Origin: Candidatus Cloacimonadales bacterium
GTDB taxonomy: Bacteria; Cloacimonadota; Cloacimonadia; Cloacimonadales; JAFGVF01
Reading direction: 5' to 3'
NCBI GenBank assembly: GCA_963663475.2
Contig: CAXXJV010000001.1
Span: 1,792,001-1,856,000, forward strand
Length of the DNA: 64,000 bases
The position numbers and the translations under genes are program-made. Under the pieces are notes generated by a model. It searched no databases. It was given only the letters and a program-made list of their open reading frames with translations, and was not told the origin of the DNA. Below are positions 15,155 to 60,683 of this stretch, piece by piece (within the stretch, counting starts at the first letter, position 1; each line of letters opens with the position of its first letter).

Positions 15155-15213
15155 TTAAACTAAAATAATGCATTAGACCGGAGTTCCTCAACCTAAGGTA
15201 AGGGACTTCGGAC
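15155..15213 (+). repeat. Left end of the TTAA palindrome family fused to a hairpin family 3 copy
   Basis: ttaaactaaaataatgcattag then agaccggagttcctcaacctaaggtaagggacttcggac. Confidence 0.65.
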
Positions 15214-15254
15214 CAACAACCATAATAAATCCAAAAAAAAAAAATAAAATAAAC

Positions 15255-15283
15255 TTGACACTCAAAGAAAGGTAACCTATTCT
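15255..15283 (+). promoter_or_regulatory. Putative sigma70 promoter
   Basis: TTGACA-17 nt-TATTCT, then AGGAGA RBS before 15311. Confidence 0.6.
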
Positions 15284-15310
15284 TGCTTAGATAATAATTA
15301 AGGAGATCTT

Positions 15311-17353
15311 ATGTGTAGAAGTATGAAGTATATTTTTAACTTGTTGTTAGTCTGTAGTTTTTTGATAACTATTTCATGTGATGACACTACTTCCAAGCCT
15401 ACAAGTCAACTTACTAGTCCAAGCTTTTCCCTTAATGCAGGATTATACAATGATATTCTCGAAATTGAATTAAATCATGAAAATCCTCAAGCTCAAATCT
15501 ATTACACACTAGATGGGAGCCTGCCTTCAGAAAATTCACAACTCTACCAAGAAGCAATCTTAGTAGTTGCTACAACAACAATCAAAGCTATTGCCTATCA
15601 TTCATCTTACAAAGCTAGTGAAGTTAATAGTAAAACCTTTTGGCTCAATCTAACCCCAGTTCAAGATCCTATTTTTGTTACAGAACCAGGAACTTATTAT
15701 TATGAGGAAACAATTGCTTTAGAGTGTCCAACTCAAGGTGCTGATATCTTTTACACCTTAGATGGAAGCCAACCTAGCCAAGAATCTCAAAAGTATGAAC
15801 AAGCTTTTTTAATCACAGAAAGTTATACTGTGAAAGCAAGAGCATACAAACAATATTATCCCTCAAGTGAAACAGTTACAGCTAATTATGAAATTACCCT
15901 TCCAAGTGTTGCTGTTCCAACTTTTACCCCTTCTCCAGGACTTTATGATTTGAATCAAACTGTTTCTCTTCATTCGGCTACTCAAGCTGCAGCAATCTAC
16001 TATACTATTGATGGTTCTCAACCTACAATAAATTCTCTTTTGTATAATGAACCCTTGTATATTGACTCTTCAATTACAATCAAAGCTATTGCTGTTAAAG
16101 AAGATTATCTGAATAGTCCAATGGTTGCAGGACAGTATATTATTGAATATCAGACAGTCGCAGCACCTGAATTTTCCTTAGAACCAGGTTATTATCTTGG
16201 TAGCCAAACTGTTAGCATTGAGACAGCAACTCCTTCTGCGTCAATATATTACACTTTAGATTCGAGTCAACCTAGTCAAGCATCCCAACTTTACTCTAAT
16301 CCTATTGAAATAAGTGAACCAACCACAATCAAGGCTATAGCTTTCAAAGAATTTTTTTATGATAGTCCAATCGTGTCTGCTGAATATAAAGTCTATCAAG
16401 AAGCTGTAGAAAATCCTATTCTAGATCCTCCCCCAGGTAATTATATTGGAATGCAAGTTGTAACTTTATCTTGTTCCACTCCTGGAGCACAGATTTACTA
16501 TACTGTAAATGGAACCATACCTACAGAAAGTTCTTATCTCTATATTGCACCTCTAAGTATCAGTCAAACTACTGTTCTAAATATCAGAGCTTTCGCACCT
16601 GGATACTACCCTAGTGAAATTCAGGGATCTCGTTATCTTATAGGAAATCCAGCACCAAATGACTTTGTTTTTGTGGAAGGGGGAAGTTTTAGTAATTATA
16701 TAGCTGATGTAACGATAAGTTCCTTCTATATATCAAATCATGAGATTACCCAAGCTGATTATTTCTCAACAATGGGCTTTTGGCCTGACGCACCTAATGG
16801 CTTTGGTGCTTATCACCCTGCCTATTACTTAACCTGGTATGAAGTAGTAGCCTATTGTAATGCTAGATCTATTGAAGAAGGGTTAGTACCTTGCTATAAT
16901 CTTTCCAACTGGTCATGTGATTACGAGGCTACTGGTTATAGATTACCTACTGAAATGGAGTGGATGTATGCTGCTAAAGGTGGCAACTTTCAACCAGAAA
17001 CAGATTATAACACTTATGCCGGAACAGATAATCCTAACCTCTTAATCGATTATGCTTGGTATAATATGCTAGCTAACAATAGTTGTTATCAGGTCAGAGG
17101 AAAGTTAGCAAATCAGCTAGGCCTCTATGATATGTCTGGAAATGTTTATGAATGGTGTAATGATTGGTATGGTAACTATAGTACTGAAAATCAAACAAAT
17201 CCAACTGGACCTGAGACAGGGGACAGTAAAGTTATCAAAGGTGGTGCTTGGAATACCTGGTCAGATGCTTGCAAAATTACTTCAAGAGATCATGCAGATC
17301 CAGCAATTTCATCAAATAATATCGGTTTTAGATTGGTTAGGAGGACTTACTAA
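15311..17353 (+). CDS. Lipoprotein with 5 chitobiase/beta-hexosaminidase C-terminal (Fn3-like) repeats and a C-terminal FGE-sulfatase (CLec-fold) domain
   Basis: Lipobox-like ITISC; five IYYT(L/I/V)(D/N)GSxP-type repeats; YRLPTEMEW, GLYDMSGNVYEWC, IGFRLVR. Confidence 0.85.
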   Translation: MCRSMKYIFNLLLVCSFLITISCDDTTSKPTSQLTSPSFSLNAGLYNDILEIELNHENPQAQIYYTLDGSLPSENSQLYQEAILVVATTTIKAIAYHSSYKASEVNSKTFWLNLTPVQDPIFVTEPGTYYYEETIALECPTQGADIFYTLDGSQPSQESQKYEQAFLITESYTVKARAYKQYYPSSETVTANYEITLPSVAVPTFTPSPGLYDLNQTVSLHSATQAAAIYYTIDGSQPTINSLLYNEPLYIDSSITIKAIAVKEDYLNSPMVAGQYIIEYQTVAAPEFSLEPGYYLGSQTVSIETATPSASIYYTLDSSQPSQASQLYSNPIEISEPTTIKAIAFKEFFYDSPIVSAEYKVYQEAVENPILDPPPGNYIGMQVVTLSCSTPGAQIYYTVNGTIPTESSYLYIAPLSISQTTVLNIRAFAPGYYPSEIQGSRYLIGNPAPNDFVFVEGGSFSNYIADVTISSFYISNHEITQADYFSTMGFWPDAPNGFGAYHPAYYLTWYEVVAYCNARSIEEGLVPCYNLSNWSCDYEATGYRLPTEMEWMYAAKGGNFQPETDYNTYAGTDNPNLLIDYAWYNMLANNSCYQVRGKLANQLGLYDMSGNVYEWCNDWYGNYSTENQTNPTGPETGDSKVIKGGAWNTWSDACKITSRDHADPAISSNNIGFRLVRRTY

Positions 17354-17366
17354 GCATCTTGTGAGT

Positions 17367-17446
17367 TTAACCGTAATGGCGCAGTAGAACTTTGATGAAG
17401 AGTGCTAAAAGAAGATAGTGCTATTCGCAAAGATCTACTGCATTAA
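17367..17446 (-). repeat. TTAA palindrome family, short copy F (reverse orientation)
   Basis: Reverse complement closely matches 33790-33892. Confidence 0.8.
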
Positions 17447-17512
17447 ACTATTCATCCCCTTTTGGGATTCAAGACTTATCCCTGACTTGAACTTGAGCCT
17501 GCTTTTTGTTGG

Positions 17513-17600
17513 AGACCAGACTTCCTCAGCCGTAGGCAAGGGACTTCGGGTGAAGAGTGTCGGAAGTCGCTACTCCGTGAGCAAGTCTCGTCACTCTTCA
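17513..17600 (+). repeat. Hairpin family 3 copy plus adjacent tgaagagtg...cactcttca hairpin
   Basis: agaccagacttcctcagccgtaggcaagggacttcgg resembles 15175-15213 and the reverse complement of 29798-29836. Confidence 0.75.
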
Positions 17601-17695
17601 TATAATCTTACTTGTAACTTTCTATTATTCAAGCAATATGCTATAATGAAAGTCTCTTATTTACCAGCAGACTTGAACAAGAGCCATTAATTAAG

Positions 17696-17865
17696 TTAAA
17701 CCCAAATAATGCAATAGATCTTTGTGAATAGCACTATATTCTTCTGCAAAAGTAACTTCCATAATTTCTCCGAATATATAAAATATATGCGTCAAAATTC
17801 TGTAAGCTATTTTGCTAGAATAATCTGCACTCTTCACTAAAGCTCTACTACACTATCTGGGTTAA
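17696..17865 (+). repeat. TTAA palindrome family, full-length copy A (MITE-like, about 170 bp)
   Basis: Near-identical to 27738-27906 and 49464-49633; long imperfect terminal inverted repeats. Confidence 0.9.
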
Positions 17866-17874
17866 AATATAAAT

Positions 17875-17905
17875 AAAGGGACACATTCGATTGTGTCCCT
17901 ATTTA
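17875..17905. terminator. Rho-independent terminator-like hairpin between convergent genes
   Basis: agggacaca-ttcgat-tgtgtccct flanked by A/T-rich runs. Confidence 0.6.
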
Positions 17906-17951
17906 TGTTTGAGTTTATTATCCTTTAACCCAGATACTTGACTATCTTGGC

Positions 17952-19814
17952 TTAATCACTCCATGGATTCTCGGTAAGGGAAGAATCATAATTATATATC
18001 CAATCTTGATTTTCTTGACCACCAGATGTTACCCAACCAGAGAAATCTGGATAAGCTCTGAAAATAGGAATATTTTCTTTAACTGCAGGAACCCAGCTAT
18101 CAGTTGAGAAGTAAAGGGCCCAAGGGTAATTGTTTTCAGTTTTATACCAGTTACCTGAGAAGAGGAGAGAAGCATCGTCACCAGTTCCAAAAGAATCCAT
18201 GTTAGCATATTCTGTAGGAGGATAACCAGGAAGATGGACTTCTAAGCTTCTATTGTTACTTCTAAACAAGAAGAAGTCTGGGATAGGATTTTCAGGTTGT
18301 GGTTCATTAGGGTCAAAATAAATTCTGATAGACATATCATCGCCTTGAGTTAAATCCATTTGTCCAATATCATGAATAAGAACAGCAGTATTTGAAGCAA
18401 ATTTATCAATATAGGTCATAGTTGACCAATCACCATTAGCTTGACCATTAGACCAGTTTGTTGGTAAAGAATAGGCTACTACAGAATTGAGCATATTCCC
18501 TTCGTCAAAAGGAATATAACTTGTTGAGGATATAGTAGATTGTGTATCTAAAAAACGAAGAGCAAGTCCATTATGCAGACTAGCCCCAGCCTTCATTACT
18601 TTTAAATAAAGGTCGAAATAGACTATTTTATTGTCTGCATTCACTTTAAATTCTGAGTCTGAAATGTAAATATAAAGATCATTAAAGTCATAATCACCCT
18701 TATCAGGCCAAAGATCTTCATACATGATAAAACCACCAGGAACTGAAATTTCACCAGCTATATTAGGATTTCCAGGTTCTGAATCTTCAGAATTAGCTAC
18801 ACCATCTCCATCAGAATCAATTGCTGAAACTTCTGTATCATATAAGGTTACTAACCAGTTATCTAAACGAACATTACCTTGCAGACCATTGTATTGGCCA
18901 ATAATAACCAAATACTTAGCATTATTCAAATTATTATTAGTTCTGTCAGAGAAAAATCTATCTGTATTGGTATAAGTCCAAGGTGACCATGGAAAGAAAC
19001 TAAGATAGTTCATATTCTCATCTAAAAATATGTAAGTATTAGTTATGTATGAACCATATGGGCAGTCATTTAAATCAGCAGTATCTGGCCTTTTGGCTCC
19101 TTCTAAATTTTCATTAAAATAATCATATCCTTCTACATCAATAGTTTGCATAATAACCCAGTCCGTACCTAAAATTAGATAATCTGTAAGTCCATCTGAT
19201 TCTTTTTGAATAGAACCACTTCCATTAGGATTGAATTTAGTTTTGTGCCAGCCTGTGTTTGCTGGTGGAACTTGAGTAGGAATATGAATGTTATTATTAT
19301 CAATGAAAGGTTGAATGATCCAAGGAGAGATATCATTAATTGTTAAAAAGTCTGAATTATCATCATCAATTTCTCCTGCAAAATAGGGATCTTGATTTGC
19401 TTGATAAGCAAAACGTTGATTATCAGAAGTTGGAACTAGGATATTATGTTCTTTAGTTGAAGTTGAAATCTCCTGAGAGAAATTGAAGGCCGGAAGCTCA
19501 ATTATTAAGTTATCGAAACCTATAACCGAATTAATATTCATTTCTAAATTTCCATCAATAACAAATTTACGAGCTAAAACATCACGATTGTGACGGACAA
19601 TTACTAAGTTTTTACCTGTAATATTAGGTCCATCAATGGTAATGTTCAGCTTGATATAATCTAAATTTGTCCAGTTAAAATCATCAGGAATATCTAAATT
19701 TTGATAATCTTCTGCTGGAGAAGTTGAATTATCATCGCTACATCCCACTATACCCAAAACTAATAGTCCTGTAAGTAAGATTAGAAAAAAAGTTCTTCTC
19801 ATAATAAACTCCAT
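17952..19814 (-). CDS. LruC/DUF4842 domain lipoprotein
   Basis: Lipobox IVGC; YEDLWPDKGDYDFNDL, EVHLPGYPPT, YPWAL, AYPDFSGWVTSGG; start may be 19802. Confidence 0.8.
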   Translation of the reverse strand: MEFIMRRTFFLILLTGLLVLGIVGCSDDNSTSPAEDYQNLDIPDDFNWTNLDYIKLNITIDGPNITGKNLVIVRHNRDVLARKFVIDGNLEMNINSVIGFDNLIIELPAFNFSQEISTSTKEHNILVPTSDNQRFAYQANQDPYFAGEIDDDNSDFLTINDISPWIIQPFIDNNNIHIPTQVPPANTGWHKTKFNPNGSGSIQKESDGLTDYLILGTDWVIMQTIDVEGYDYFNENLEGAKRPDTADLNDCPYGSYITNTYIFLDENMNYLSFFPWSPWTYTNTDRFFSDRTNNNLNNAKYLVIIGQYNGLQGNVRLDNWLVTLYDTEVSAIDSDGDGVANSEDSEPGNPNIAGEISVPGGFIMYEDLWPDKGDYDFNDLYIYISDSEFKVNADNKIVYFDLYLKVMKAGASLHNGLALRFLDTQSTISSTSYIPFDEGNMLNSVVAYSLPTNWSNGQANGDWSTMTYIDKFASNTAVLIHDIGQMDLTQGDDMSIRIYFDPNEPQPENPIPDFFLFRSNNRSLEVHLPGYPPTEYANMDSFGTGDDASLLFSGNWYKTENNYPWALYFSTDSWVPAVKENIPIFRAYPDFSGWVTSGGQENQDWIYNYDSSLTENPWSD

Positions 19815-19824
19815 TATTTTTTTG

Positions 19825-19912
19825 TTAAGCTAAGTAGTGCACTAGGATTTTAGGAAGGTATGCAGAAGAATATTCTGCTATTCACAAAAGCCTAATATAC
19901 TATTTGAATTAA
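19825..19912 (-). repeat. TTAA palindrome family, diverged short copy K
   Basis: Reverse complement contains tttgtgaatagcagaatattcttctgca, identical to part of copy C. Confidence 0.7.
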
Positions 19913-19943
19913 ATTTTAATCAAATATTTCAAAATAGCTAATT

Positions 19944-20441
19944 TTATTTTAGTACATCACTTACAGTTGCAGACATAGATGCAGGAAAGGCTACTATGAT
20001 AATTCTTTTTAAAGCAAGAATGTTATCTATCCCCCAGGGACATTTATTGAGGATTGTAAGTATGATAGCTACAACTGATATGGATATAAAATAAGTAGAT
20101 AAAACTCTTATAATATATTGAGTCATATTATTTTTAAGATAAAATCTATAAAAATTAAAGTAAACAAAAAGGGAAATAAAGAAAATTGAGATTAGAGATA
20201 AGACTAAAACATTTATCAAAGGTAACTCTTGGCCTAACTCCCAGGTCTCGGCTGTAAAGGCCATGGGAATTGCCAGTAGGGATGAACCTACTAAGACTTG
20301 TAGCAGGTCTCTGGGTCTAAACTCAACCATTAAAGGCCTTAAAAGATGACTTAGCACGTTGCCTGTCTCATCCTTGACTGGTGTGACTTTGTATAAATAA
20401 CCACCTATCCTTTTAACTTTTGTTTCATTTTTATGATTCAT
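19944..20441 (-). CDS. DUF2391 family membrane protein
   Basis: LMVEFRPRDLLQVLVGS...IPMAFTAETW...FPASMSAT; four TM segments. Confidence 0.7.
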   Translation of the reverse strand: MNHKNETKVKRIGGYLYKVTPVKDETGNVLSHLLRPLMVEFRPRDLLQVLVGSSLLAIPMAFTAETWELGQELPLINVLVLSLISIFFISLFVYFNFYRFYLKNNMTQYIIRVLSTYFISISVVAIILTILNKCPWGIDNILALKRIIIVAFPASMSATVSDVLK

Positions 20442-20543
20442 AATATACTCCTAAAGCTAATTAGGATATGTAAATAATAATTGTCAAGCTAAAAAATTGA
20501 TAGAATTTTTTTCGGCTCAAGTTCAAGTCTGGTGGAAACAACT

Positions 20544-20698
20544 AAGCTATGGACTGAGACCATCCCAGGTCTCAGAAGAATGTGTAAGCAAAAAAGCTAG
20601 GGACTGAGACCATCTTGGTCTCAGAAGAATGTGCAAGCAAAAAAGCTATGGACTGAGACCATCTTGGTCTCAGAGAAGTTGACTTTGTCAACACTCTG
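20544..20698 (+). repeat. Three tandem 49-50-bp units with a CTGAGAC..GTCTCAG hairpin, followed by a GTTGAC-TTT-GTCAAC palindrome
   Basis: Units start at 20544, 20594 and 20643; linkers are almost identical. Confidence 0.9.
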
Positions 20699-20747
20699 AG
20701 CTACAGAGTAGCGACAGAAAAGCCTAAGATATGCCGAAATTCGATTA

Positions 20748-22070
20748 TTAAGGTTGAGTTTCTCTTTTATCAAGCAAACATTTAAGCCTATTTACGAAAT
20801 CTATTTCATTATTCATTAGGGCTTTTGAAAAATCCTGGTCCTTTGGATTTGGAATATTTACACCATCAACAATAAACTTAACATTATCATTTCCTATCCA
20901 TTGGTTACTATGTGATTTTGATTTATCTACATCAGTTTCCAGTGGGTAAAGTAATCCTCCAACAATAACATCATATTCTGAATTATTATTATAATAACTT
21001 ATGTATGTATTTATCTGGAAAAAGTCTGTTCTATCTAAGTCATTAGACTCAAAATTCATTTTTTTCCATTTGGCATCAAAGACTGCGATTTTTTTCCCTT
21101 TTCTAAGTATTAGATCAGGTATTATAGATCTCTTGAAGAAATTATTTTGATATAATAATTCGCTTTCTTGAGTTAGAACTTCCCAGTCACTCAGATTTTC
21201 CTTTAAGATTCTAGCAAGATATAGCTCCCACACTTCTGACATATCAAGGAAAATACCAAAACTATCATTACTACCGCTATTACTCTGAAAGAATACTGAT
21301 TTATTATTTATAATTCTCCAAGATAGGTCAACCACTCTTTTGAAAGGTAGGTAGATTGATTGATACTTTATTTTAACATATTCAGATATTGTTACTTTTC
21401 TGAGAAGTAAATCTTGTCTTAGCAAATGGGATATAGCATCTTGAGCAGAATCTGAAGGTTTTGTAATAAAATTTTGAAATAATATCCTATAAGTTTGAAA
21501 TAATATTTGTGAGATAGTTTCATCAAAATACTTCGATGAAAAATCAGAAACAACTTGTTTATTATTAAAATAGGGTTTCACTGATTTCTTTATATTTAAC
21601 CTTCCTTTTATGGTTAAACCCCTATGATGCTCTTTCTTTTTAACTCTGGGTAAACCAAATTTGTTCGCGTCTCCCAGCTGCTTTAACCAAATTATTCCAA
21701 TAAGTTCCTTAATCCAAAACTCTTCACAATTAACTTGATCAGAAAAGCTCTTTGGTAATTGAATATTATAGATATATTCGAGCATTTTGGTTAGAAATAT
21801 ACTGCCAAATCTTGGTTGAATATCGACATGGACATCAGACTTTAAGTACTTAAAGTTTATCTTTCCCACAAAACGATTAGCTAACCAGTCTTTAATTTCA
21901 TAATCATAATAAACAAGTGCTTCCTTTACTTCTCTATTTGTTAGTTTAAGGAATGAACCATCACTCCTTTTAATCAGTTCTTCAATTATCTTACTTCTGT
22001 TTTTCTGCTGAGAAGATGGTTTTAATTCATCAAACTTTGAGCAGTCTTTAGCTTTTAACTGTATTGCCAT
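20748..22070 (-). CDS. mcrC: McrC family PD-(D/E)xK nuclease subunit
   Basis: FVGKI..IQPRFG, DMSEVWELY, IIPDLIL...FDAKWK, DFFQINTY; 1-nt overlap with mcrB. Confidence 0.85.
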   Translation of the reverse strand: MAIQLKAKDCSKFDELKPSSQQKNRSKIIEELIKRSDGSFLKLTNREVKEALVYYDYEIKDWLANRFVGKINFKYLKSDVHVDIQPRFGSIFLTKMLEYIYNIQLPKSFSDQVNCEEFWIKELIGIIWLKQLGDANKFGLPRVKKKEHHRGLTIKGRLNIKKSVKPYFNNKQVVSDFSSKYFDETISQILFQTYRILFQNFITKPSDSAQDAISHLLRQDLLLRKVTISEYVKIKYQSIYLPFKRVVDLSWRIINNKSVFFQSNSGSNDSFGIFLDMSEVWELYLARILKENLSDWEVLTQESELLYQNNFFKRSIIPDLILRKGKKIAVFDAKWKKMNFESNDLDRTDFFQINTYISYYNNNSEYDVIVGGLLYPLETDVDKSKSHSNQWIGNDNVKFIVDGVNIPNPKDQDFSKALMNNEIDFVNRLKCLLDKRETQP

Positions 22071-26400: not shown

Positions 26401-26419
26401 TTAAACCCTTACTTTCCTT

Positions 26420-26502
26420 GTAGCATCCTTAATCCTTCCTTTACAGTCTTTCGATGAAACTGGGACTTTCATCGAAAGACTGTAAAGGAAGGATTAAGGA
26501 TG
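26420..26502 (+). repeat. GTAG-led perfect 36-bp-stem hairpin (family 2, copy 1)
   Basis: Arms 26424-26459 and 26467-26502 are exact reverse complements; second copy at 60605-60683. Confidence 0.9.
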
Positions 26503-27737: not shown

Positions 27738-27906
27738 TTAAAACCAATAATGCAATAGATCTTTGAGAATAGCACTATATTCTTTTGCAAAAGTAACTTC
27801 CATTATTTCTCCGAATATATAAAATATATGCGTCAAAATTCTGTAAGCTATTTTGCTAAAAGAATTTGCACTCTTCTCTAAAGCTCTATTGCACCATTCG
27901 GGTTAA
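27738..27906 (+). repeat. TTAA palindrome family, full-length copy B, followed directly by a second left end (27903-27924)
   Basis: Near-identical to copy A with compensatory changes. Confidence 0.9.
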
Positions 27907-27934
27907 AACCAATAATACAATAGAGGTAAAAAAA

Positions 27935-28096: not shown

Positions 28097-28186
28097 ACCT
28101 AGTTAATGCAATAGACTTTGGTTAGGTATTTTAACCTTTCTCTTAGAATATGTCTGCTAAGGAAGTTACTGCATTATAAAGGTTAA
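28093..28186 (+). repeat. TTAA palindrome family, diverged copy G
   Basis: ttaaacctagttaatgcaataga ... ttactgcattataaaggttaa. Confidence 0.65.
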
Positions 28187-33617: not shown

Positions 33618-33718
33618 TTAACCCAAATAATGCAATAGGTCTTTGAGAATAGCAGAATATTCTTTTGCAAAAGAACTTGCACTCTTATCTAAAGCTCTAT
33701 TGCACCATTTGGGATTAA
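33618..33718 (+). repeat. TTAA palindrome family, internally deleted copy D
   Basis: Both arms of copy B are present and the central ~70 bp are missing. Confidence 0.85.
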
Positions 33719-33789: not shown

Positions 33790-33892
33790 TTAAACCCGAA
33801 TAATGCGATGGACCTTTGCGAATAGAAGTATCTTCTTTTGCTAAAAGAATCTAGCACTCTTCATCAAAGTTCTACTGCACCATTCTGGTTAA
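33790..33892 (+). repeat. TTAA palindrome family, short copy E
   Basis: ttaaacccgaataatgcg...ctactgcaccattctggttaa. Confidence 0.85.
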
Positions 33893-35323: not shown

Positions 35324-35396
35324 TTAATAGCCCAAATAATGGAGTAACTCTTTGTGAATAGCTATTCATAAAAGCCTACTAGACTACTTGGGTTAA
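35324..35396 (+). repeat. TTAA palindrome family, diverged short copy H
   Basis: cccaaataatgg...tttgtgaatagc...ctacttgggttaa. Confidence 0.7.
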
Positions 35397-39629: not shown

Positions 39630-41740
39630 GTTTGCCCAGAATGTTATCTGAGCCGATGGACTGAAAGAAGTCCTGACACCCAACTGACAGGAAGTCAATC
39701 TGAGGTCAAGGGCGTTGCTGGCAACGGCAGGGTCTGAAGTAAGACGCAGGAAGAATGTGGAACATAGCGAAAGTGAACTGAATTTGGTTTATGTAGTGGG
39801 TAACTTTTCAAAAAGTGAGGACGCCCAAATGTCAGTCGACTACATGGATTATAACAGATGGATTTGCATTCAGGTAGGATAGCTTAACTGGGGAAGCCTG
39901 TTAAAGTCTCTAAAAGAGTAACTATGACTTCAAGCTGAAAGGCAAGAGTTGTATCAAGCTTTAGCAGGTGGCAGATGATTCCGTAGTAGTGATAAACCTT
40001 TTGCCAATGAAGGCTGGTGACAGACTGGAGGATAAAACAAAAGGGACAATATTCATAGTAATATTGAGGAATATGACTCAAAAGGTCATAATTCATGCGA
40101 AGGGATGAAGATAAACCAAAGAATGAACATGTTGAAAGAGTATTTTCTTAAAAGTAGGAAACGAAGAGAATCGCTAGATTCAAGGCTCGGATAGACGGTG
40201 GTGAGTACCTTCTTTCTATCACGACCTTACGAGACTGAGTAGATGAAGTTAATAAAGGATAATAGTCAAAACCTGAAAAATCTTTGATAAAGATTGCATA
40301 GAGCTAAAAACGTCAAAGGTCTTCATTGAATAAACTGTCATTTGAAAGTATAAACTTAATTTTGTTTATTGTGAAAAAGGAGAAACTAAATGAAGAAATG
40401 GTATAGTTTAATTGATAAAGTTTACTCGAAAGGTAATCTCTATGAATCTTTTCAAAAAGTAAAGAAAAACAGAGGTGTAGCTGGTATAGATAATATTACT
40501 ATATCAAAATTTGGGGAAGACCTTCAAGAGAACTTAGAGAATATTCATTTAGAATTGAAAAGTGGGAATTATATCCCATCACCTGTAAAACGGGTAGAGA
40601 TACCTAAAGCAAATGGTAAGATGAGACCATTAGGGATACCTACTGTAAAAGATAGAATCGTACAGCAGGCAATAAATAACATCATCCAACCGATTTTTGA
40701 ACCTGATTTTCATCCGCAAAGTTATGGCTACCGACCTAACAAAAGTTGTCAAAAGGCAGTGGCTAGAGCACAAGTATTAATGGTACGTGATGAACTTCCT
40801 TATGCAGTAGATATGGATTTATCCAAATGTTTTGATACATTAAATCATAAATTCATAATGCAATCATTAAACAGGAAAATTAGTGACGGGACATTATTAA
40901 AGCTGATAGAGGGAATCTTAAAATCTGGAGTTATGCAAGAAGGTAAGTATAGTGAAACAGAAATAGGGAGTCCACAAGGAGGGGTAATCTCTCCACTTCT
41001 TATGAACATATATCTTGATAGCTTTGACCAAGAAATGAAGAGTCTAGGAATTGAGATAGTCCGTTATGCTGATGATATATTACTTTTTGCCAAGACTAAG
41101 AAGAAAGCAGAACAATATCAACGAATTGCGGTTGAATACCTAAACTCTATTTATCTCATCGTGAATGAAGAAAAGACACATATTGCAAGTGTATTAAATG
41201 GAGTAAAATATCTTGGTTTTGAGATACATGAGGAGTATGTCAAAATAGAAGATAAGAGGGTAAAAGCGTTCAAAGATAAAATTCGGACACTGACTCCACG
41301 AAATAGCGGAATTAATGTTGAGACTATGATTAAAAGACTCAATCCGATATTGAGAGGTTGGTCGAATTACTTTAGAGTAGCAAATTGCAAAGGAGTCTTT
41401 CAGTCTTTATTATCATGGATAAGGCGACGGCTAAGAATGAAGAAAATGCGGGAATGGAAAAGTTGGAAAGCTTTACACCAACAACTTAGAAGAGTAGGTC
41501 ATAAAAGTGATTTTCCGAAAATATCTATGACTCACTGGAAGAATTCTGGTTGTTACCATATTCACAGAGCTCTACCTAATGAGTGGTTTGAGCAATTAGG
41601 ATTATATGACTTACTATCGAAACCCACAGGTGTTTTATTTAATTATTATGAATAATTACAAGGTTTATCAGGAGCCGTGTACGAGACCCGTACGCACGGT
41701 TCTGTGAGAGGGATGGTGCTAACGCACCACCCTACTCGAT
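39630..41740 (+). mobile_element. Group II intron, class C-like, inserted right after a terminator
   Basis: 5' gtttgcccagaatg; short domain V 41672-41702 with CG bulge; domain VI ending ctactcgat; 5' boundary is inferred. Confidence 0.88.
40390..41655 (+). CDS. ltrA: Group II intron reverse transcriptase/maturase without endonuclease domain
   Basis: RPLGIPTVKDR, SYGYRP, DLSKCFD, PQGGVISP, RYADD, RGWSNYF. Confidence 0.95.
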   Translation: MKKWYSLIDKVYSKGNLYESFQKVKKNRGVAGIDNITISKFGEDLQENLENIHLELKSGNYIPSPVKRVEIPKANGKMRPLGIPTVKDRIVQQAINNIIQPIFEPDFHPQSYGYRPNKSCQKAVARAQVLMVRDELPYAVDMDLSKCFDTLNHKFIMQSLNRKISDGTLLKLIEGILKSGVMQEGKYSETEIGSPQGGVISPLLMNIYLDSFDQEMKSLGIEIVRYADDILLFAKTKKKAEQYQRIAVEYLNSIYLIVNEEKTHIASVLNGVKYLGFEIHEEYVKIEDKRVKAFKDKIRTLTPRNSGINVETMIKRLNPILRGWSNYFRVANCKGVFQSLLSWIRRRLRMKKMREWKSWKALHQQLRRVGHKSDFPKISMTHWKNSGCYHIHRALPNEWFEQLGLYDLLSKPTGVLFNYYE

Positions 41741-41757
41741 ATTATTCAAAATTCAGA

Positions 41758-49451: not shown

Positions 49452-49463
49452 TTACAAGTTTCT

Positions 49464-49633
49464 ATAAACCCAAATAGTGCAGTAGACCTTTGTGAATAGC
49501 AGAATATTCTTCTGCAAAAGTAAGATCCATAATTTCTCCGAATATATAAATTATATGCGTCAAAATTCTGTAAGCTATTTTGCTAGAATAATCTGCACTC
49601 TTCACTAAAACTCGACTACACTATCTGGGATAA
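49464..49633 (+). repeat. TTAA palindrome family, full-length copy C, followed by a partial hairpin (49640-49683)
   Basis: Near-identical to copies A and B; lies between convergent genes; terminal TTAA is degenerate (ATAA) here. Confidence 0.9.
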
Positions 49634-49691
49634 AAAAAAGCAGTAGATCTTAACAAAGATCTACTGCACCAATTGCGTTTAAATTTCAAAA

Positions 49692-50078: not shown

Positions 50079-50096
50079 TATTTATCCTTTGTTAAG

Positions 50097-51197: not shown

Positions 51198-51214
51198 TAT
51201 TTCTCCATTTATTA

Positions 51215-52987: not shown

Positions 52988-53082
52988 TTACTTCTTAGCT
53001 TACTCCTTTTATGAGTCTTTTTACTTTTTTATTAAATCATTGATAATTAGTCAATAAATATCTTTATATAAGAAAAACTTCT

Positions 53083-54891
53083 CTAAGTATTATCATTAAG
53101 AGACTTAAGGATATTTTGGGCAGAGTTTTCTCCAATACCCTTAATTCGCATTAGGTCTTCAATGGATGAATTTTTAATCACATCTACAGAACCGAATTCT
53201 TTTAGCAAGGCAAATTTAAGTTTTTCTGAGATACCTTTAATAGAATCAAGTTTACTAACTAAGGTTCTTGATGATCTTCTTTTTCTATGGAAGGTGATAG
53301 CAAACCTATGGGATTCATCTCGAATATGAGTAAGCAACTTAAGGGCTGAAGATGTTTTAGGAAGGATAATAGAGTTTTCATGTCCAGGAATATAGACTTC
53401 TTCAACTCGCTTAGCTAGGGATATAAGCATGATATTTAGGTCATTGAAATCTTGGAGAATAGCATTAGCTGCATTGAGCTGTCCTTTACCACCATCAATC
53501 ACAATAAGGTCAGGAGTAAGTTCTTTATTTTCTCTGCAATTATTAAGGAATCTAGTAATAGTCTCAGCCATGGAAGCAAAGTCATCTTGCCCTTCAACAG
53601 TCTTGATAATGAAGTGTCTATAGTTTCTTTTCAGAGGTTTTCCATTGGCAAAATAAACTGCAGAGGAAACAGTATCTTCTCCTTGAATAGTTGAAATGTC
53701 CATGCAGACCATCTTTCTGGGAAGTCTATCAAGTTTTAGAATATCTTTTAATTCTTGCACAGAGAAGATAGTCCTATTTTTATTTCTAATTCCTTGCAGT
53801 TTCTTGTCTTCCACATACATAAAAGCATTTTTTCTAGCAAGAACTACCAAGTTATTTTTTTCCCCTTTTTGAGGAACTTTTATTTTATTTTTTAGCCATT
53901 CATTTAAGCTATCAATATCTTCAGGTTCAGTAGAAACAATAATATCATCTGGTAGATCTTCTTTTTGGGAATAGTAATCAGTAATAAAATAAGAGAGCAA
54001 GGCACCTTCGCTTTCATCTTCTACATTTTTTAGGGGGTAGAGTTCTTTATTATTAACCCTACCTTCAACCATTTTTAGAACAACAACTGCAGCTATAGAT
54101 TCTTCTCTATAGGCAGCAATAATATCACGATTTTTTAAATCAGAGAAAAACATATTTTGCTTTTCAGAAAACTTTTCTAGAGCTTTAATCTTATCTCGTA
54201 TTTCTCCAGCTAGTTCAAACTTAAGTTCTTCAGCAGCTGTTTGCATTTCTTCTTTAAGAGTATTCATGAGAGAATAGTGTTTACCTTGCAAGAAATCTTT
54301 TACATTTTTTACTAGTTTCATATAATCAGAGTGAGATATCTTACCAATACAGGGTGCTAGGCATTTCTTCAGTTGATAGTTGATACAAGCTTTGTCATAG
54401 AGAATCTCATCTTTAGGGATTTTTCTGTTACAGTTACGGAGGGGAAAAATCCATTCTAGGAGGGAAAGAATTCTTCTAATATCAGGAAAGCGGGAATAGG
54501 GTCCGTAGTAAGTAGAACCATCTTTAACAAGAGTTCTAGTTTTCTCTATCTTTGGGAAAGGATCATTTGTTATCTTGATGAAAGGGTAGCGTTTATCATC
54601 CTTTAGCATTACATTATAACGAGGAGAGAACTTCCTAATCATAGTTGCTTCGAGAATTAGAGCATTACTTTCACTAGAAACTACAATATAATCTAAATCA
54701 TAAATATGTCTTTGAAGTTGTTTAGTCTTTCTATCTTTATGATCTTGTAGATAAGACCTAACTCTATTCTTAAGATTCTTGGCTTTACCAACGTAGATAA
54801 CCTCATTGTCTTTATCTTTCCAGAGATATACTCCTGGATTATCAGGTAGTAATTCTAGTTTTCTTTCAAGGTGAGAATTAATTTTAATCAT
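53083..54891 (-). CDS. uvrC: Excinuclease ABC subunit C
   Basis: PGVY, YVGKAKNL, PRYNVMLKDDK, DGGKGQ, RDESHRFA, HhH; start at MIKINSH (54891). Confidence 0.97.
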   Translation of the reverse strand: MIKINSHLERKLELLPDNPGVYLWKDKDNEVIYVGKAKNLKNRVRSYLQDHKDRKTKQLQRHIYDLDYIVVSSESNALILEATMIRKFSPRYNVMLKDDKRYPFIKITNDPFPKIEKTRTLVKDGSTYYGPYSRFPDIRRILSLLEWIFPLRNCNRKIPKDEILYDKACINYQLKKCLAPCIGKISHSDYMKLVKNVKDFLQGKHYSLMNTLKEEMQTAAEELKFELAGEIRDKIKALEKFSEKQNMFFSDLKNRDIIAAYREESIAAVVVLKMVEGRVNNKELYPLKNVEDESEGALLSYFITDYYSQKEDLPDDIIVSTEPEDIDSLNEWLKNKIKVPQKGEKNNLVVLARKNAFMYVEDKKLQGIRNKNRTIFSVQELKDILKLDRLPRKMVCMDISTIQGEDTVSSAVYFANGKPLKRNYRHFIIKTVEGQDDFASMAETITRFLNNCRENKELTPDLIVIDGGKGQLNAANAILQDFNDLNIMLISLAKRVEEVYIPGHENSIILPKTSSALKLLTHIRDESHRFAITFHRKRRSSRTLVSKLDSIKGISEKLKFALLKEFGSVDVIKNSSIEDLMRIKGIGENSAQNILKSLNDNT

Positions 54892-57800
54892 CTTGTTTCT
54901 TTTTAAAGATAGAGAGAGAGATAAAGACAGTAGTACCTTCGTGTTCTTTACTTTGAACCCAGATTCTACCCTTATTAAGATCAACTATTCTTTTACAAGT
55001 TGAAAGACCAAGACCTAAACCAGCTGATCTATATTCAATAGTTCCTGATTTATGAGAATATATATCATTAATTTCATAAAACTTCTTAAAAATATTTTCT
55101 AACTCTTTTTCTGGTATGCCGATACCATTATCTTTAACATAAATAACAAGTGCTTCTTGATTATTAATCTTTTCATTTTGGAAGGTTGAACGCCTTACTC
55201 CTATACTAATCTCACCAAAATCATTAGTGAATCTAATTGCATTTAAAATTACCTGATTTAGCATGATTGATAGGGATTCCCAGTCACCGTAAACATTTGG
55301 AATATTATCTTCAATATCTGTTTTGATAGTTAGTTTTCTTTTTTCGGCTAGGTTTTGTGTATCGTGAACACAAAGATTTACTAGCTCAGTAATGTCAATT
55401 TCTCCAAGACGTAACTCACTAGTGATAGAGAATTTATTGAATGTTATGATATCATTTGTAGTATTAATCAGTTTAGATACACTAGATTCTACATTCTTAA
55501 GTAATTCTTCTCTTTTGGTAGGATTCTCTGTCAGATTATTCTTAAGTTTTCTGACATAGGTAGATAATTTAGTTAGAGGTGTGTTAAGTTCATGAGAAAC
55601 AATATTAATGAAATCATCCTTTAAAGAATCAAGTTTTACTAGTTCAATATTCTTTTTAAAGAGGTTATAGTAACTTACGGCATTTTTAATGCTAGTATTA
55701 ACTTGTAGGAGGAAGAGTTTAAGTATCTCTTTATTAACATAAAGTTGGTTTTGAATATCAAGATAGTTATCGAAATAAATAATACCATATATTTTGTTAT
55801 CAATGATTACTGGTGCACAATAATAGGAGAGAAGTAAGAAGTTATCTCTTTTTCTAGATCTTCTAAAAGAATCTTCACTAACATTATTGGAATAGAGAGG
55901 TTTTTTCAGTTGTTGGACTTTGAGAAGGGCATTATTATCTAAGGAAGTATATTGCTTAACAATATTATTCTCATTATCTAATGCAATGGTAAACTTATAA
56001 TTACCTGAGTCTTCAATTTGAATAAAGAAACCTCTGGAAGCATTTAGGAAGTTTATTCCTTCAGCAACCACCTCATATTCAAGTCTGTCTAAACTTGTAG
56101 TACCTATTAACTTATTGGTAACAGTCATTAAACGGGACATGAGAGTCATCTTTTTGTGGTTTTCAATAAAGTCAATAACTCGCAATAGAATAGTGGTAGC
56201 TTGTAAGCTGATAGAGTTGAGAATTAATATTTCATTATTGGTATAAGCAACATCACCATCATCTTGAACAAGAATAAAACCAACCCTATTTTTTGCTATC
56301 TGTAGAGGGATAATTGCCACATGATTATCTTTAATTTTTTTAGTAACTACAGTGTTCTTAGTGAAAGACCGCTTAATCAAACTAGTATATTCTTTAGATT
56401 GAATCAGTTCAAAATCAAAATTCTCAGAACTAAACTCTTCATAGTTCATATTATCTTGATTATAGATAGCAATGGTAAATGAAGTAGGTGAAACAAGAGT
56501 ATCTAGCAATTTTGCAAAGAAGAAGATAATTCTATTCATATCTTTAATTTGCAAGAGTTCAGCTATCTTTTTATTTAAGGTTTGTTTAGTAAGACTCTTT
56601 CTAGGAGCTATTTTCTCAAAGACAAAGCTAGATATTTTTCTGCTATAATAGTGTTTTTTAGCTAGGAATTCTCTATACATTTTGGGGTTAGAAAAATCAA
56701 CTAAGTATTGGATTTTCTTCTTATATTTATAGATGTAAGGAGAGTTCATATCAACAGCTTCAAATTGATTTAAGACTTGTATGATAAGACCTAATGTTTT
56801 TATCTCAATCAGAAGATAACGTTTCTCATCACAAAGGTTAGCAAGATCAATCAAGTCTCTAAGTACTTGTCTTAAATGAATATTTGGGTTAAGTAAGTCT
56901 ATCTTACACTTGTGTAATCTAAGGACCGATTCCCAGTATTGATAATTATATTTTTTACATAGATTAAAGACTTCTTCATAAATTGCTTCTGCTTCTTCAG
57001 TCTTATTAAGGTAAAGTAAACATTCAATTTCTCGTATTCTAAAGATAGTATAAGCATACTTATTCCGTGAAGTTTGAGCATATTCCTTAGCAAATTCAAT
57101 ATTTCTATAAGCTACTTCATAATTATTCTTGGTCATAGCTAAGAGATTCAGAGCATTGTAATAGAATTCTTCTTCTTTAAGTTTACTATAACTAATATGA
57201 GAATTTTTGTTAATCAATTCTTCAATTGCTTCAGAGGCTGAAATCTCGTAGAGGAAATAGAAGTAGGTCTTAACTGAGGGGTTGAGATCATAGAATTTAT
57301 TCTCTTTGAGTTCTGGATTTTTCTCGTAAATGAAGTCAGTATATTCTTTGTATGTAGAAGTTTTACTCATAGCTAGAGCCAAGTTTCGGTTGATACTAGG
57401 ATCACTTTTGATACCTTCGACTTTATCAGAAATTTCTTTAGCTCTTTCAAGATAGACTTTTGCACTAGCAAAATCACCAAATTTTAGTTTAGCTTCTGCA
57501 ATATTTATATAGGTTAAAACTGCTGTTGAAGAATTATAGTTTCTCTCTAATAATTCCTCAGATTTTAAGAAGAGATCAAAGGCTTTATTGGTGAGACCCT
57601 GTTTAAGATAAAGGTCGCCTAAATTATTATATATTAGAACTAATTGTTTTTCAATATTAAATTTTTCGAAAAGAGATATGCTCTTAGTAAAGTAACTCTG
57701 GGCCTCATCTAATCTTTTTATGGAAGAGTAATAAGTAGCTAAGTTATTATAAATGATAGCAATAATAATCATCATATCATTTTCAGGTGTAGCAGGGAAT

Positions 57801-60358
57801 TTCTCTATCAAAGCTTCTTCAATTGTGATAGCATCCATTATTTTACCATTCTTAAAGAAGAGAACAGAACGTCTATCTTGGAAGAGAAGGTAGTATTTAA
57901 GGTCTATAGATGAATAGTCAATTTCCTCAAGTAATTCTTTAACCTCAGGCATTTTGCCTAATCTTTGAAAAATCTTAGTAGCTAAAAGTCTTAGTTCCAG
58001 AGAATGCTTGGCTGTTCTTATAAGGGATTCTGCAAGGGGGAAGAGGTTAACTGCATTCTCAAATTGCTCAAAAAGATAATATAGCTTGATTAAAATGAGA
58101 TATTTTTCAAAGATAGGAGGATAACTATCCATAATTCTAATTAATTGTTCGGCTTTGCTAGCAGAGACGACTATATCTAATTTCTCACTAATTAAAGAGG
58201 CATCTTTGATTAGATTCTTATCAACATGAGGAATAGAGTCAATCACATTTATTTTAAGCACATTTATCAGGTTTTCAAAAGCTGCTTCTTGATTATGTTG
58301 TTGGTCATTAAGCTTATATAGTCTTAAATTGTACTTTCTAATAGCATCATAATCTTTAGCAATCTTAGCATTTTCAATAATACCTTGGCAGATTTCCATA
58401 TCATTTATTTCAATATTATGGAAGTAGGATATTAGCTGTTCAGAATACTTAATCAAATTATCTTTAGAACATTCCCTTATCAGTCTTTTCTGAGCTTCTG
58501 GGAAGGTAAAATGATAGTATTCACCCAATTTAATCAAAATCTCATTATTAAGGGCATCTGTAATGAAGTGATAGAGCTGAAGATCGTTTATTTTGAAAAA
58601 ATACTTGATCAGACTCTTGCTAAGTGGTGTCTGTACAATTGCTAATTGCATCAAATATTTATAGCTATTTTCAGCTAAGTTGCTCATTCTCACATAAATT
58701 GAATCTAAGATTGATTTTGGCAGCGTTGCGTGGTCAATATTATAGGAGAAATCAAAGCCAGATTCACTCCATATCTTTCTTCTTTGAATTAAATCGATTA
58801 AGAATTCTTGCATGAAGTAGGGATTACCACATGTTCTTCTATGTAGTTTTTGAATCATGCTTTCCGGGACATCATTTTTAAGAAGTTTTAGAACGTACTT
58901 CTTAGATTCTTCATATTCCAGGAATGGAATTTTGATAATAACTGTTTCATTGAGTTTTTGAACCTGTCGATAATTATTGAAAGATAAGGCAATAATTATC
59001 TTTGATGTTGAGATAATGTCAGCACAGAAATTGATAAATTCAATACTGTTATCTTCTAAGAGTTCAGCATGTCTGATAATAAAGACTAATGGTCTTTCTT
59101 GAGATAAGTGTTGAAGATAACTTTTAAGAGAAGCAAAATCTTCCATCATATCATCTTTAGAGAAATTGGTAAGCTTAGCAGCATCTTCAGATTCATAGAG
59201 GTATTTCTTGAATTTAGCTGATATCTTATTTAAGTCATCTTCTAGAAGAACTGCAGCATTGTTCTTACTAACAGAGGTATGAAACTCTTTGGTTAAGGCA
59301 TAGAAGGGGTCTTTGTGGTCATGACTACATTCGTAATCAAAAATATAGTATTTTCCAGTGAGAATATGGTATTTAAAAAGGGTTAGAATATCACCTTTGC
59401 CTAAGCCTTTACCACCAACTAAAGAAATTAGCTTTCCATTATTATTCTCTACTGCCTCCAGATAGCGAGTAAGATTTTTACTGATATCTTCATTTACATA
59501 GTAACTATTGAATTTTAGGAAGTTTACAGTGGACCATTGGTAAGAAAAGGAGTATTTTTTTAGTTGATTTTTATTAATAAAATCTATTATCTCTGGAACA
59601 CTTCTAAATCTATTTTCTGGATTCTTCTCTAAAAGCCTAATGATAAGTTTTTCTAAATCTTCAGGTATATCACTGTTTACCTGTCTAGGTAGTTTGGGAA
59701 GTACATAATCTTTATTACCCTGAATAAAGGCCATTATCTGCTTAATCGAGAAGGGGAAAGCACCAGTTGTTAAGCGGTAAAGGGTTACTCCTAAGGCATA
59801 AAAGTCACTTTCTGGTGTAGGTTCATTTCCTAGGTAAACTTCAGGAGCTATGAAAGGTAGTGAACCAGTAATTTTCTGAGGATCTCCATCTAAATCAATC
59901 TTAAAGAAACCATAATCCATGACTTTTATCTGGGGGCCAGACCCAGTAAATCTAAAAAGAACATTATGAGGTTTTATATCTTTATGAATCATCCCATGAG
60001 TATGTAGTGCGTGTAAAGCATAACAGATTTGAGTAACAATATTGTAAAGTTCTGAAATGTTATCTCTATTAACTGGAAACCTGTTTAAAGGGTGGCCATC
60101 ATAGTATTCGCTTAAGGCATAGACATTCTTTCCTATGTTGCCAAAATCAACAATATTAATGAGGTTGGGATGGTTAATTTGGGTTAAATGATGCATGTTA
60201 TTAGCAGGTAGTTTTTTATAAAACTCTTTTGCATCGAGATGATTAAAGTATTTTAAAGCATATATCTTATCAGTTCTTAAATCTTTTACTTTATAAACTG
60301 TTGCCCATAATCCGGAACCTAATTCTTCAATAACTTCATATCTAGAATCTAAAATCAT
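54884..60358 (-). CDS. Hybrid Ser/Thr kinase - degenerate P-loop (STAND-like) - TPR - GAF - histidine kinase
   Basis: HKDIKPHN, DYG, APE, DFYALG; GGKGLGKG; GNPYF; TPR-like YNNLG repeats; SHELNTPL, NAIRFT, DNGIGI, GLGLGL. Confidence 0.9.
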   Translation of the reverse strand: MILDSRYEVIEELGSGLWATVYKVKDLRTDKIYALKYFNHLDAKEFYKKLPANNMHHLTQINHPNLINIVDFGNIGKNVYALSEYYDGHPLNRFPVNRDNISELYNIVTQICYALHALHTHGMIHKDIKPHNVLFRFTGSGPQIKVMDYGFFKIDLDGDPQKITGSLPFIAPEVYLGNEPTPESDFYALGVTLYRLTTGAFPFSIKQIMAFIQGNKDYVLPKLPRQVNSDIPEDLEKLIIRLLEKNPENRFRSVPEIIDFINKNQLKKYSFSYQWSTVNFLKFNSYYVNEDISKNLTRYLEAVENNNGKLISLVGGKGLGKGDILTLFKYHILTGKYYIFDYECSHDHKDPFYALTKEFHTSVSKNNAAVLLEDDLNKISAKFKKYLYESEDAAKLTNFSKDDMMEDFASLKSYLQHLSQERPLVFIIRHAELLEDNSIEFINFCADIISTSKIIIALSFNNYRQVQKLNETVIIKIPFLEYEESKKYVLKLLKNDVPESMIQKLHRRTCGNPYFMQEFLIDLIQRRKIWSESGFDFSYNIDHATLPKSILDSIYVRMSNLAENSYKYLMQLAIVQTPLSKSLIKYFFKINDLQLYHFITDALNNEILIKLGEYYHFTFPEAQKRLIRECSKDNLIKYSEQLISYFHNIEINDMEICQGIIENAKIAKDYDAIRKYNLRLYKLNDQQHNQEAAFENLINVLKINVIDSIPHVDKNLIKDASLISEKLDIVVSASKAEQLIRIMDSYPPIFEKYLILIKLYYLFEQFENAVNLFPLAESLIRTAKHSLELRLLATKIFQRLGKMPEVKELLEEIDYSSIDLKYYLLFQDRRSVLFFKNGKIMDAITIEEALIEKFPATPENDMMIIIAIIYNNLATYYSSIKRLDEAQSYFTKSISLFEKFNIEKQLVLIYNNLGDLYLKQGLTNKAFDLFLKSEELLERNYNSSTAVLTYINIAEAKLKFGDFASAKVYLERAKEISDKVEGIKSDPSINRNLALAMSKTSTYKEYTDFIYEKNPELKENKFYDLNPSVKTYFYFLYEISASEAIEELINKNSHISYSKLKEEEFYYNALNLLAMTKNNYEVAYRNIEFAKEYAQTSRNKYAYTIFRIREIECLLYLNKTEEAEAIYEEVFNLCKKYNYQYWESVLRLHKCKIDLLNPNIHLRQVLRDLIDLANLCDEKRYLLIEIKTLGLIIQVLNQFEAVDMNSPYIYKYKKKIQYLVDFSNPKMYREFLAKKHYYSRKISSFVFEKIAPRKSLTKQTLNKKIAELLQIKDMNRIIFFFAKLLDTLVSPTSFTIAIYNQDNMNYEEFSSENFDFELIQSKEYTSLIKRSFTKNTVVTKKIKDNHVAIIPLQIAKNRVGFILVQDDGDVAYTNNEILILNSISLQATTILLRVIDFIENHKKMTLMSRLMTVTNKLIGTTSLDRLEYEVVAEGINFLNASRGFFIQIEDSGNYKFTIALDNENNIVKQYTSLDNNALLKVQQLKKPLYSNNVSEDSFRRSRKRDNFLLLSYYCAPVIIDNKIYGIIYFDNYLDIQNQLYVNKEILKLFLLQVNTSIKNAVSYYNLFKKNIELVKLDSLKDDFINIVSHELNTPLTKLSTYVRKLKNNLTENPTKREELLKNVESSVSKLINTTNDIITFNKFSITSELRLGEIDITELVNLCVHDTQNLAEKRKLTIKTDIEDNIPNVYGDWESLSIMLNQVILNAIRFTNDFGEISIGVRRSTFQNEKINNQEALVIYVKDNGIGIPEKELENIFKKFYEINDIYSHKSGTIEYRSAGLGLGLSTCKRIVDLNKGRIWVQSKEHEGTTVFISLSIFKKKQDD

Positions 60359-60565
60359 GATTATCCCCTCTCAAGTCATTTTTAGACATTTACACCTTTT
60401 TTACCCCAGTTATAATAGCCATATCTTAGAGCTAGTCTCAAAGGTCTTCTCTATTTGTTGAATCCAAGCATATTAACTAGGTTTTAATATTATATTAAGT
60501 AATTGATTTATGTCAAGAGAAGATTAAAAAATCTGTGTCTTACTGAAAATGAGACTTGTCAAGTA

Positions 60566-60683
60566 TTAACCCAAATAATGCATTAGACATTGGTGAATTT
60601 ACTTGTAGCATCCTTATTCCTTCCTTTACACTCTTTCGATGAAAGTCCGCCTTTCATCGAAAGAGTGTAAAGGATGGAATAAG
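60566..60683 (+). repeat. TTAA family left end followed by GTAG long hairpin (family 2, copy 2 at 60605-60683)
   Basis: ttaacccaaataatgcattaga; gtagcatccttattcc...gatgaaag-tccgc-ctttcatc...ggaataag. Confidence 0.85.

Follow-up and report, generated by a model that had tools for sequence, protein, structure and literature searches.

The short repeat bcr1 of the Bacillus cereus group is ~155 bp long, lies between genes, is flanked by 5-bp direct repeats (TTTAT), and carries compensatory changes (PMC3184786, PMC6542083; these and the other papers given by PMC number are cited for those parts of their text that were at hand). Insertion sequences (ISs) of the IS1380 family yield 4-5-bp direct repeats (PMC12116815). 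For the attC sites of sedentary chromosomal integrons, G:T pairs and a purine skew stabilize one strand, which lies on the template of the leading strand for 25 of 30 arrays (PMC5027507, PMC5371416). Here, we describe a family of dispersed repeats in a 64,000-nucleotide stretch of DNA from a Candidatus Cloacimonadales bacterium (the window; C1:1,792,001-1,856,000 of the source genome, G000, which is 3.3 Mb with 33% GC). [quoted passage not shown] The ends, target duplication, empty sites, matching IS, rod-like fold, covariation, and orientation by replichore were each observed. Relatives of the source genome are designated G002, G003, G004, G006, G008, and so on, and L numbers denote loci in them.

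Ends, Target Duplication, and Abundance

The element is short (161 bp), multi-copy, and intergenic and contains no transposase gene, the features by which a MITE is recognized. Profile searching with nhmmer gives 342 non-overlapping matches in G000 and none in a shuffled C1, in keeping with the hundreds of copies per genome projected in a preliminary description of the window; merged blastn matches give 328 loci, and MITE matches span 1.15% of the genome. The intergenic placement put forward in that description also holds, with none of the 153 near-full copies lying within a called gene; an open reading frame (ORF) end is touched by 15 of the 112 copies of the 161-bp class. Copies in G000 have a median spacing of 16 kb, and 5 of 98 spacings are below 2 kb. 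The window copies termed A, B, and C, which are found where they had been placed together with shorter copies, are mutually 91-94% identical. High-identity matches are present in five of the six other genomes of the same genus and in one further genus; in the sixth genome of the genus, the match is at an IS end only.

The termini are 17-bp CCC…GGG terminal inverted repeats. Both ends are present in 150 copies, 58 of which have intact CCC…GGG termini and constitute the test set for target duplication. Identical 5-mers flank 46 of these 58 copies (shuffle mean 8.0, maximum 19 in 10,000 shuffles), and identical flanks of 3, 4, or 6-8 nucleotides are observed in only 0-1 of the 58. The duplicated target has the consensus W-T-W-A-W and is a direct repeat outside the element. 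Most copies had been described as ending in TTAA on both sides, and the element as possibly a MITE with a TA or TTAA target; a flanking repeat does exist and the element is a MITE, but the true boundary is the 5-bp WTWAW repeat, TTAA is present in only 26 of the 46 duplicated targets, and the driver is of the IS1380 type, as considered below. Intact targets are also found in relatives (43 of 48 copies in G002, 15 of 19 in G008, and 3 of 6 in G003), and a second left end, placed head-to-tail and sharing the right target, follows 12 of 257 right ends genome-wide.

Comparison with empty sites, a check that had been proposed, yielded nine informative sets. For 9 of the 46 insertions, the interrupted host repeat is found elsewhere with one target, although two of the nine may be one event; of 14 initial matches, five were left out (four self-matches and one nested mismatch). 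In addition, the gap orthologous to copy C is empty in G006, and in G004 it is occupied by another copy with a different target.

An IS1380-Type Insertion Sequence with the Same Ends

An end-matrix scan of DDE loci in relatives identified a 1694-bp IS, present in seven copies in G002, both ends of which agree with the left-end consensus of the MITE at 16 of 17 positions. Six of the seven copies are flanked by a direct 5-bp target-site duplication (TSD; TTAAA or TTTAA), and in the seventh the TSD is displaced by an inserted intron. Related ISs in other relatives, at ~70-76% protein identity, have a right end equal to the MITE consensus (L077, L080, L081, and L083) or one base off it (L079), with target duplications that are exact in L080 and L081 and match at four of five bases in L083. 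The IS also has a plain deletion derivative, 346 bp in length (L262). The G002 transposase (469 aa) scores 90.9 bits with PF13701 (DDE_Tnp_1_4; cut-off 34.7) and 57.5 with the IS1634 profile, and its top two plasmid matches are annotated as IS1380. The motif QL[RS]LF, of the type that binds the sliding clamp, is present at residue 312 in five of five transposases. Among 232 genomes of the phylum, transposase homologues were found in 16 and the combined motif of target plus end in 39.

From these sequence comparisons, an IS1380-type enzyme is almost certainly the driver and would mobilize the MITE in trans. Several observations weigh against this assignment: the transposase falls slightly below the NCBIfam cut-off for IS1380 (175.8 versus 180 with NF033539), the homology between MITE and IS ends at the 17-bp termini, and the interior of the MITE matches no sampled IS. 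IS1634 was rejected as the driver, since the loci found above the IS1634 cut-off lack matching ends. A blastn search of plasmids with the element gave a single 58-nt match at chance level.

The element had been called apparently undescribed; in substance, its ends match a known IS family, as they agree with those of an IS1380-type IS. The proposed search for a transposase gene carrying the same ends thus succeeded in relatives and not in G000, where searches of the 99% complete genome with PF13701, NF033539, and the G002 protein found no IS1380-type transposase. An autonomous partner within G000 was likewise sought and rejected: long pairs of ends surround housekeeping genes, and the multi-copy ISs that were inspected have different ends. 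Since no such transposase was found in G000, its copies are probably stranded. Taken together, the TSD, the empty sites, and an IS with the same ends identify the element as a MITE rather than a REPIN, an attC site, or an Rfam RNA.

Rod Structure and Covariation

The element folds into a rod, and its two strands fold unequally. As DNA, copy A has a folding energy of -31.7 kcal/mol on the minus strand and -16.6 kcal/mol on the plus strand (z -9.4 and -3.8, respectively); as RNA, the z scores are -9.5 (minus) and -5.2 (plus). One strand is the better folding as DNA in 110 of 112 G000 copies (-30.7 versus -21.6 kcal/mol), and the same asymmetry is seen in 48 of 48, 12 of 12, and 6 of 6 copies in three relatives. 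Covariation was assessed in 126 distinct sequences, with G000 copies below 90% nearest-neighbor identity, relatives' copies outside a length of 157-164, and identical rows left out; pairs were taken from averaged pair probabilities and rechecked with a wobble-blind register.

Over these 126 sequences the rod comprises 67 pairs. Both arm covariations quoted in the preliminary description are polymorphic pairs of the family: pair 26/137 is AT in 49 sequences and TA in 48, and pair 44/118 is TA in 70 and CG in 42. The strand-biased wobble reported there is likewise borne out, with G·T reaching at least 10% in 13 of 76 columns of the wobble-blind register and A·C in only one; non-Watson-Crick cells are chiefly G·T (831) and G·A (827). 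Pairs 33/130 and 34/129 remain G·T in 119 and 125 of the 126 sequences, across two genera. On internal branches of the tree, 17 double changes are observed, 14 of which preserve pairing (re-paired-column null 3.0, maximum 8; 0 of 300 reach 17). In the interior, outside the ends, the ratio of gained to lost Watson-Crick pairs is 35:39 for inherited and 37:117 for private branches (p = 0.0007), and changes from Watson-Crick to G·T versus A·C stand at 31:7 and 55:38, respectively (p = 0.015). Inherited branches therefore retain both pairing and strand bias, which indicates that the lineages leaving descendants kept the fold and its strand.

The selection for a single-stranded structure proposed earlier accordingly gains tree-aware covariation, inherited interior pairing, a one-strand G·T/G·A bias, and an orientation tied to replication (see below), with the qualification that template switching and hairpin capture also contribute. 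Rod-forming copies would transpose better if folding back juxtaposes both ends of the 161-bp element, and template switching from arm to arm may assist in maintaining the pairing; whether the pairing is maintained in this way, by better transposition helped by template switching, is an even call. Weighing against a reading as selection, the tree tests apply parsimony to a mosaic family in which tract conversions are visible (for example, three changes in L212), and compensatory changes can arise by template switching itself (PMC8794818). Mutational skew in place was rejected as the source of the wobble bias, given that rare substitutions do not differ clearly between strands (C>T 11, G>A 6, A>G 26, T>C 30); it is also disfavored because the chromosomal strand that carries the G-rich strand of the element is C-rich.

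Orientation Relative to Replication

How the copies are oriented with respect to replication, a point absent from the preliminary description, was found here. The origin and terminus of G000 were set at the skew extremes, which is consistent with gene direction on C1. A DnaA-like ORF, recognized by eye, is located at C1:1433955-1435289, ~0.8 Mb from the minimum of GC skew and gene orientation near 613 kb. The weakly folding strand is the leading-strand sequence, and thus on the template of the lagging strand, in 129 of 153 copies (p = 1e-18) and, with subsequently refined boundaries, in 136 of 153; skew measured locally over 50 kb predicts orientation with more noise (112 of 153). Divided by gene context, the counts are 46 of 54, 24 of 27 (between lagging-strand genes), 32 of 39, and 27 of 33. 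Because the bias persists between lagging-strand genes, it is not due to transcription. Relatives display a two-segment pattern with a polarity that agrees with the sampled skew, 42 of 48 copies being so oriented in G004 (0 of 500 permutations as extreme) and, among the matches listed, 41 of 55 in G002 (11 of 500 permutations). These counts used 48 of 49 matches in G004 and, among those listed, 55 of 62 in G002, one duplicate opposite-strand match being left out per genome. Among the control repeat families, the 17500 family is unbiased (32 of 69).

The bias tracks the asymmetry of the fold, at 97 of 112 in the 161-bp class (asymmetry ~9 kcal/mol), 23 of 30 in the 190-bp class (~3 kcal/mol), and 29 of 42 in short copies (~2 kcal/mol), with p = 0.018 for the 161-bp class versus short copies. 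The G002 IS itself is in the orientation of the MITE in four of seven copies (counted by hand). Near-identical copies in G002, which bears the IS, are so oriented in 18 of 29 cases, indistinguishable from 50%, compared with 39 of 42 in G000 (p = 0.002). Together, these three results favor a filter linked to the hairpin: if the lagging-strand template carried the G-rich, strongly folding strand, folding at the fork would lead to deletion or counter-selection, and surviving copies would expose the weak A·C/T·C strand. We lean, on balance, toward the hairpin as the main determinant of orientation.

A number of results count against the hairpin as determinant. In G000 the bias is strongest among the youngest-looking copies (39 of 42 at an identity of at least 99%, compared with 12 of 16 for the oldest), a pattern that fits an insertion-time bias as well as fast purging; the difference between young and older copies in G002 is non-significant (p = 0.12); and discordant copies fold just slightly less (p = 0.25, or 0.08 with refined boundaries). 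Deletion should enrich short discordant copies, so the gradient across length classes is open to several readings. Furthermore, the replichores of G002 and G004 rest on 20 sampled windows each, and an unrelated repeat family, the 7080 family, is likewise oriented (28 of 36).

It is possible, and rather unlikely, that orientation is instead set at insertion by a transposase acting on the beta sliding clamp, with the rod of the same MITE arising incidentally from an origin by fold-back, from the capture of hairpins, and from template switching. The QL[RS]LF motif of all five transposases matches the clamp consensus Q-L-S-L-F/L, and an IS1380 peptide binds beta, although the same study places IS1380 among families that are biased in few or no chromosomes (PMC3971601). 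An insertion-time bias would also suit its strength among the youngest G000 copies, but the IS itself (4 of 7) and the young G002 copies (18 of 29) do not share that bias, and length classes with identical ends differ in it. As for the rod, the tract conversions in L212 and the capacity of template switching to create compensatory changes (PMC8794818) are consistent with a by-product, as is the apparent assembly of other same-end MITEs around captured hairpins; template switching alone should remove wobbles, however, and pairs 33/130 and 34/129 remain G·T almost throughout.

Length Classes, Alternative Interiors, and Introns

G000 contains three length classes: 161 bp (112 copies), ~190 bp (30 copies, which carry a side hairpin of 30 nt), and copies with central deletions (42). 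The deletions, earlier said to keep the rod symmetric, are centre-biased and only roughly symmetric, with a median offset of 10 nt versus 17 nt by chance (22 of 5000 shuffles); because breakpoints recur, the 42 short copies are not independent. Optional side hairpins of 20-30 nt occur in either arm around a core fixed at 161 bp in two genera (L218-L229 in G008, L168 and L183 in G002, and the 190-bp class of G000). The 30-nt side hairpin resembles a motif of another repeat family. A distant 171-bp relative of the element in another family (L008 in G040) still folds into a rod and has a side hairpin.

Unrelated folding interiors of 165 and 190 bp (z -11.6 and -4.2) lie between the same ends and targets in G050 and G099, respectively. 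The G099 family has 66 matches at ~40 distinct places, many of which cover the inner hairpin only, and the three complete copies that were folded have little strand asymmetry. Owing to this weak asymmetry and to the inner-hairpin-only matches, palindrome capture explains the interiors as well as convergence does. It is with much reserve that we entertain a reading in which a DDE-transposed element exploits the folding of single-stranded DNA: the rod of the G-rich strand would join the 17-bp ends for the IS1380-type transposase, with pairing selected in propagating lineages, and jointly the opposite strand would stay weak and occupy the lagging-strand template, an attC-like strand logic in a MITE, and other Cloacimonadota would have converged on such a solution with their unrelated self-complementary interiors of 165 and 190 bp.

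In two MITEs and one copy of the IS, a group II intron of ~1.9 kb (RF02003, RF00029) is inserted precisely where the terminal GGG would otherwise adjoin the target copy. Its loci are L238, L239, and L240 in G002 and C1:1958637-1960543 in G000, and in MITEs it is always on the strong-folding strand. The MITE ends present hundreds of potential homing sites for this intron. The single G000 copy of the intron (97.7%) follows a similar short sequence without a MITE, so targeting may be by sequence.

Structured RNA and Single-Strand Mobility

Retention of the rod as a structured RNA acting on host transcripts, as an RNase III site or terminator, is improbable. Such a role has been proposed for Correia/NEMIS and ERIC. 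The G·U-containing strand of copy A does fold strongly as RNA (-66.5 kcal/mol, z -9.5), and stable stems are common in MITE transcripts (PMC10969869, PMC3184786), but in each of the four gene contexts the copies are oriented by replichore rather than by transcription, insertion positions are not conserved, and an Rfam scan of the window, which gave just a tRNA and a group II intron, removes the structured RNA that had been suggested as far as Rfam families are concerned.

REPINs are recognized by a RAYT gene flanked by its own repeats and by HUH-type insertion that leaves no staggered duplication. The REPIN-like or attC-like element of the preliminary description, which would be moved by an HUH Y1 transposase or an integron integrase, is highly improbable despite a one-strand G·T/purine bias with the stable strand on the leading-strand template, which parallels attC (PMC5027507, PMC5371416), and despite four Y1 genes in G000, two with a MITE copy within 1.5 kb: empty sites prove a 5-bp staggered duplication, the ends are shared with a DDE IS, none of the four Y1 genes is flanked by repeats on both sides, attC core pairs (RYYYAAC…GTTRRRY) are found in 0 of 112 copies, and the few spacings below 2 kb provide no cassette arrays.

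Copies and Other Repeats in the Window

The copies in the window are listed in Table 1. The item at 60566, previously described as a lone left end, begins a decayed copy of the composite class, and neither the profile nor the end-matrix search recovered the items previously listed at 15155, 17925, 26525, and 28093.

Table 1. MITE copies and candidate remnants in the window (window coordinates)
Feature	Position	Strand	Remarks
Degenerate left-end remnant, weak	15160..15178	+	Adjoins another repeat family; 71% match; missed by profile and end-matrix search
Short reverse-orientation copy	17371..17445	-	One end truncated
Copy A, full 161-bp MITE	17701..17861	+	TSD TTAAA (17696-17700, 17862-17866); the + strand is the weakly folding (A·C) one
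Possible minimal remnant, weak	17929..17951	+	Two ends only; missed by profile and end-matrix search
Decayed short reverse-orientation copy	19825..19912	-	Profile model positions 4-53
Doubtful item	26525		Missed by profile and end-matrix search
Copy B, 160 bp	27743..27902	+	Decayed left end; TSD TTAAA at both flanks
Decayed second left end abutting B	27908..27925	+	Right target in common with B; head-to-tail, by sequence reading
85-bp element, same end type	28098..28182	+	TTAAA at both flanks; divergent interior; missed by profile and end-matrix search
Internal-deletion copy, 92 bp	33622..33713	+	TSD ATTAA at both flanks
Internal-deletion copy, 94 bp	33795..33888	+	Recurrent 41/109 breakpoint class; TSD TTAAA at both flanks
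Decayed 62-bp deletion copy	35331..35392	+	Target not intact
Copy C, full 161 bp	49469..49629	+	TSD ATAAA
Decayed short copy adjoining C	49633..49677	-	Absent from the preliminary description
Decayed copy of 180-bp composite class	60570..60744	+	MITE ends enclosing a captured unrelated palindrome; 88.6% to C1:2420206

Other repeat families nest with the MITE, at 26413-26502, 60598-60702, 17500-17625, 7080-7135, and 20518-20665 of the window. A group II intron with a reverse transcriptase/maturase lies at 39630-41741, directly after a terminator hairpin, a placement that we take to be IIC-like; an identical copy is located at C1:501533-503649. Elsewhere in the genome, a segment exceeding 20 kb recurs as several near-identical copies, contig ends included (C1:1-23265, C1:1367842-1391213, C2:1-13505, and C2:304731-331003).

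Comparison with Known Systems

In its identity the element is ordinary selfish DNA, although the family of its driver can be named and its targets obey a clean rule. As a test system it combines a MITE and its transposase with three length classes that share their ends but differ in fold asymmetry, and its orientation is strongly linked to replication. It allows the question to be posed of why long rods are so frequent among bacterial MITEs and whether they serve transposition, survival at the fork, or nothing.

The likeness to attC sites is an analogy only, as the MITE lacks a core motif, array, and cassette and has a TSD and DDE ends. With members of the IS1380 family (ISEcp1/ISEc9, IS1247), the driver has in common the DDE_Tnp_1_4 transposase, 4-5-bp direct repeats, and the clamp motif; the element studied here differs in being a non-autonomous passenger and in its strict WTWAW target, and the identity of the driver to named members on plasmids is only 27-32%. 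A link between IS1380 and a MITE was not met in the portions of the MITE literature covered, which does not establish its absence from print.

Type I MITEs (Nezha, Chunjie, NEMIS/Correia, QMITE2, and MITEPye1) are described, in the partial texts used, as sharing terminal inverted repeats with an IS and as having a target duplication, AT-rich intergenic sites, and long stable stems, all features in common with the present element, although they belong with a different IS family. Neither replication-linked orientation nor strand-asymmetric wobble was met in the portions of the type I MITE literature covered (PMC10969869, PMC3184786).

Compared by description only, bcr1 is similar in size, intergenic sites, 5-bp direct repeats, and compensatory changes. 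It is cruciform-like, with its transposase unnamed in the partial descriptions used, whereas the present MITE forms one rod and has a matching IS. A leading-strand bias is reportedly seen in bcr1 as well. By analogy, the IS1380-type driver may hint at what drives orphan repeats such as bcr1. The repeat described here is a new MITE family of an IS1380-type element, the anatomy of which is nearest to that of bcr1 and the type I MITEs.

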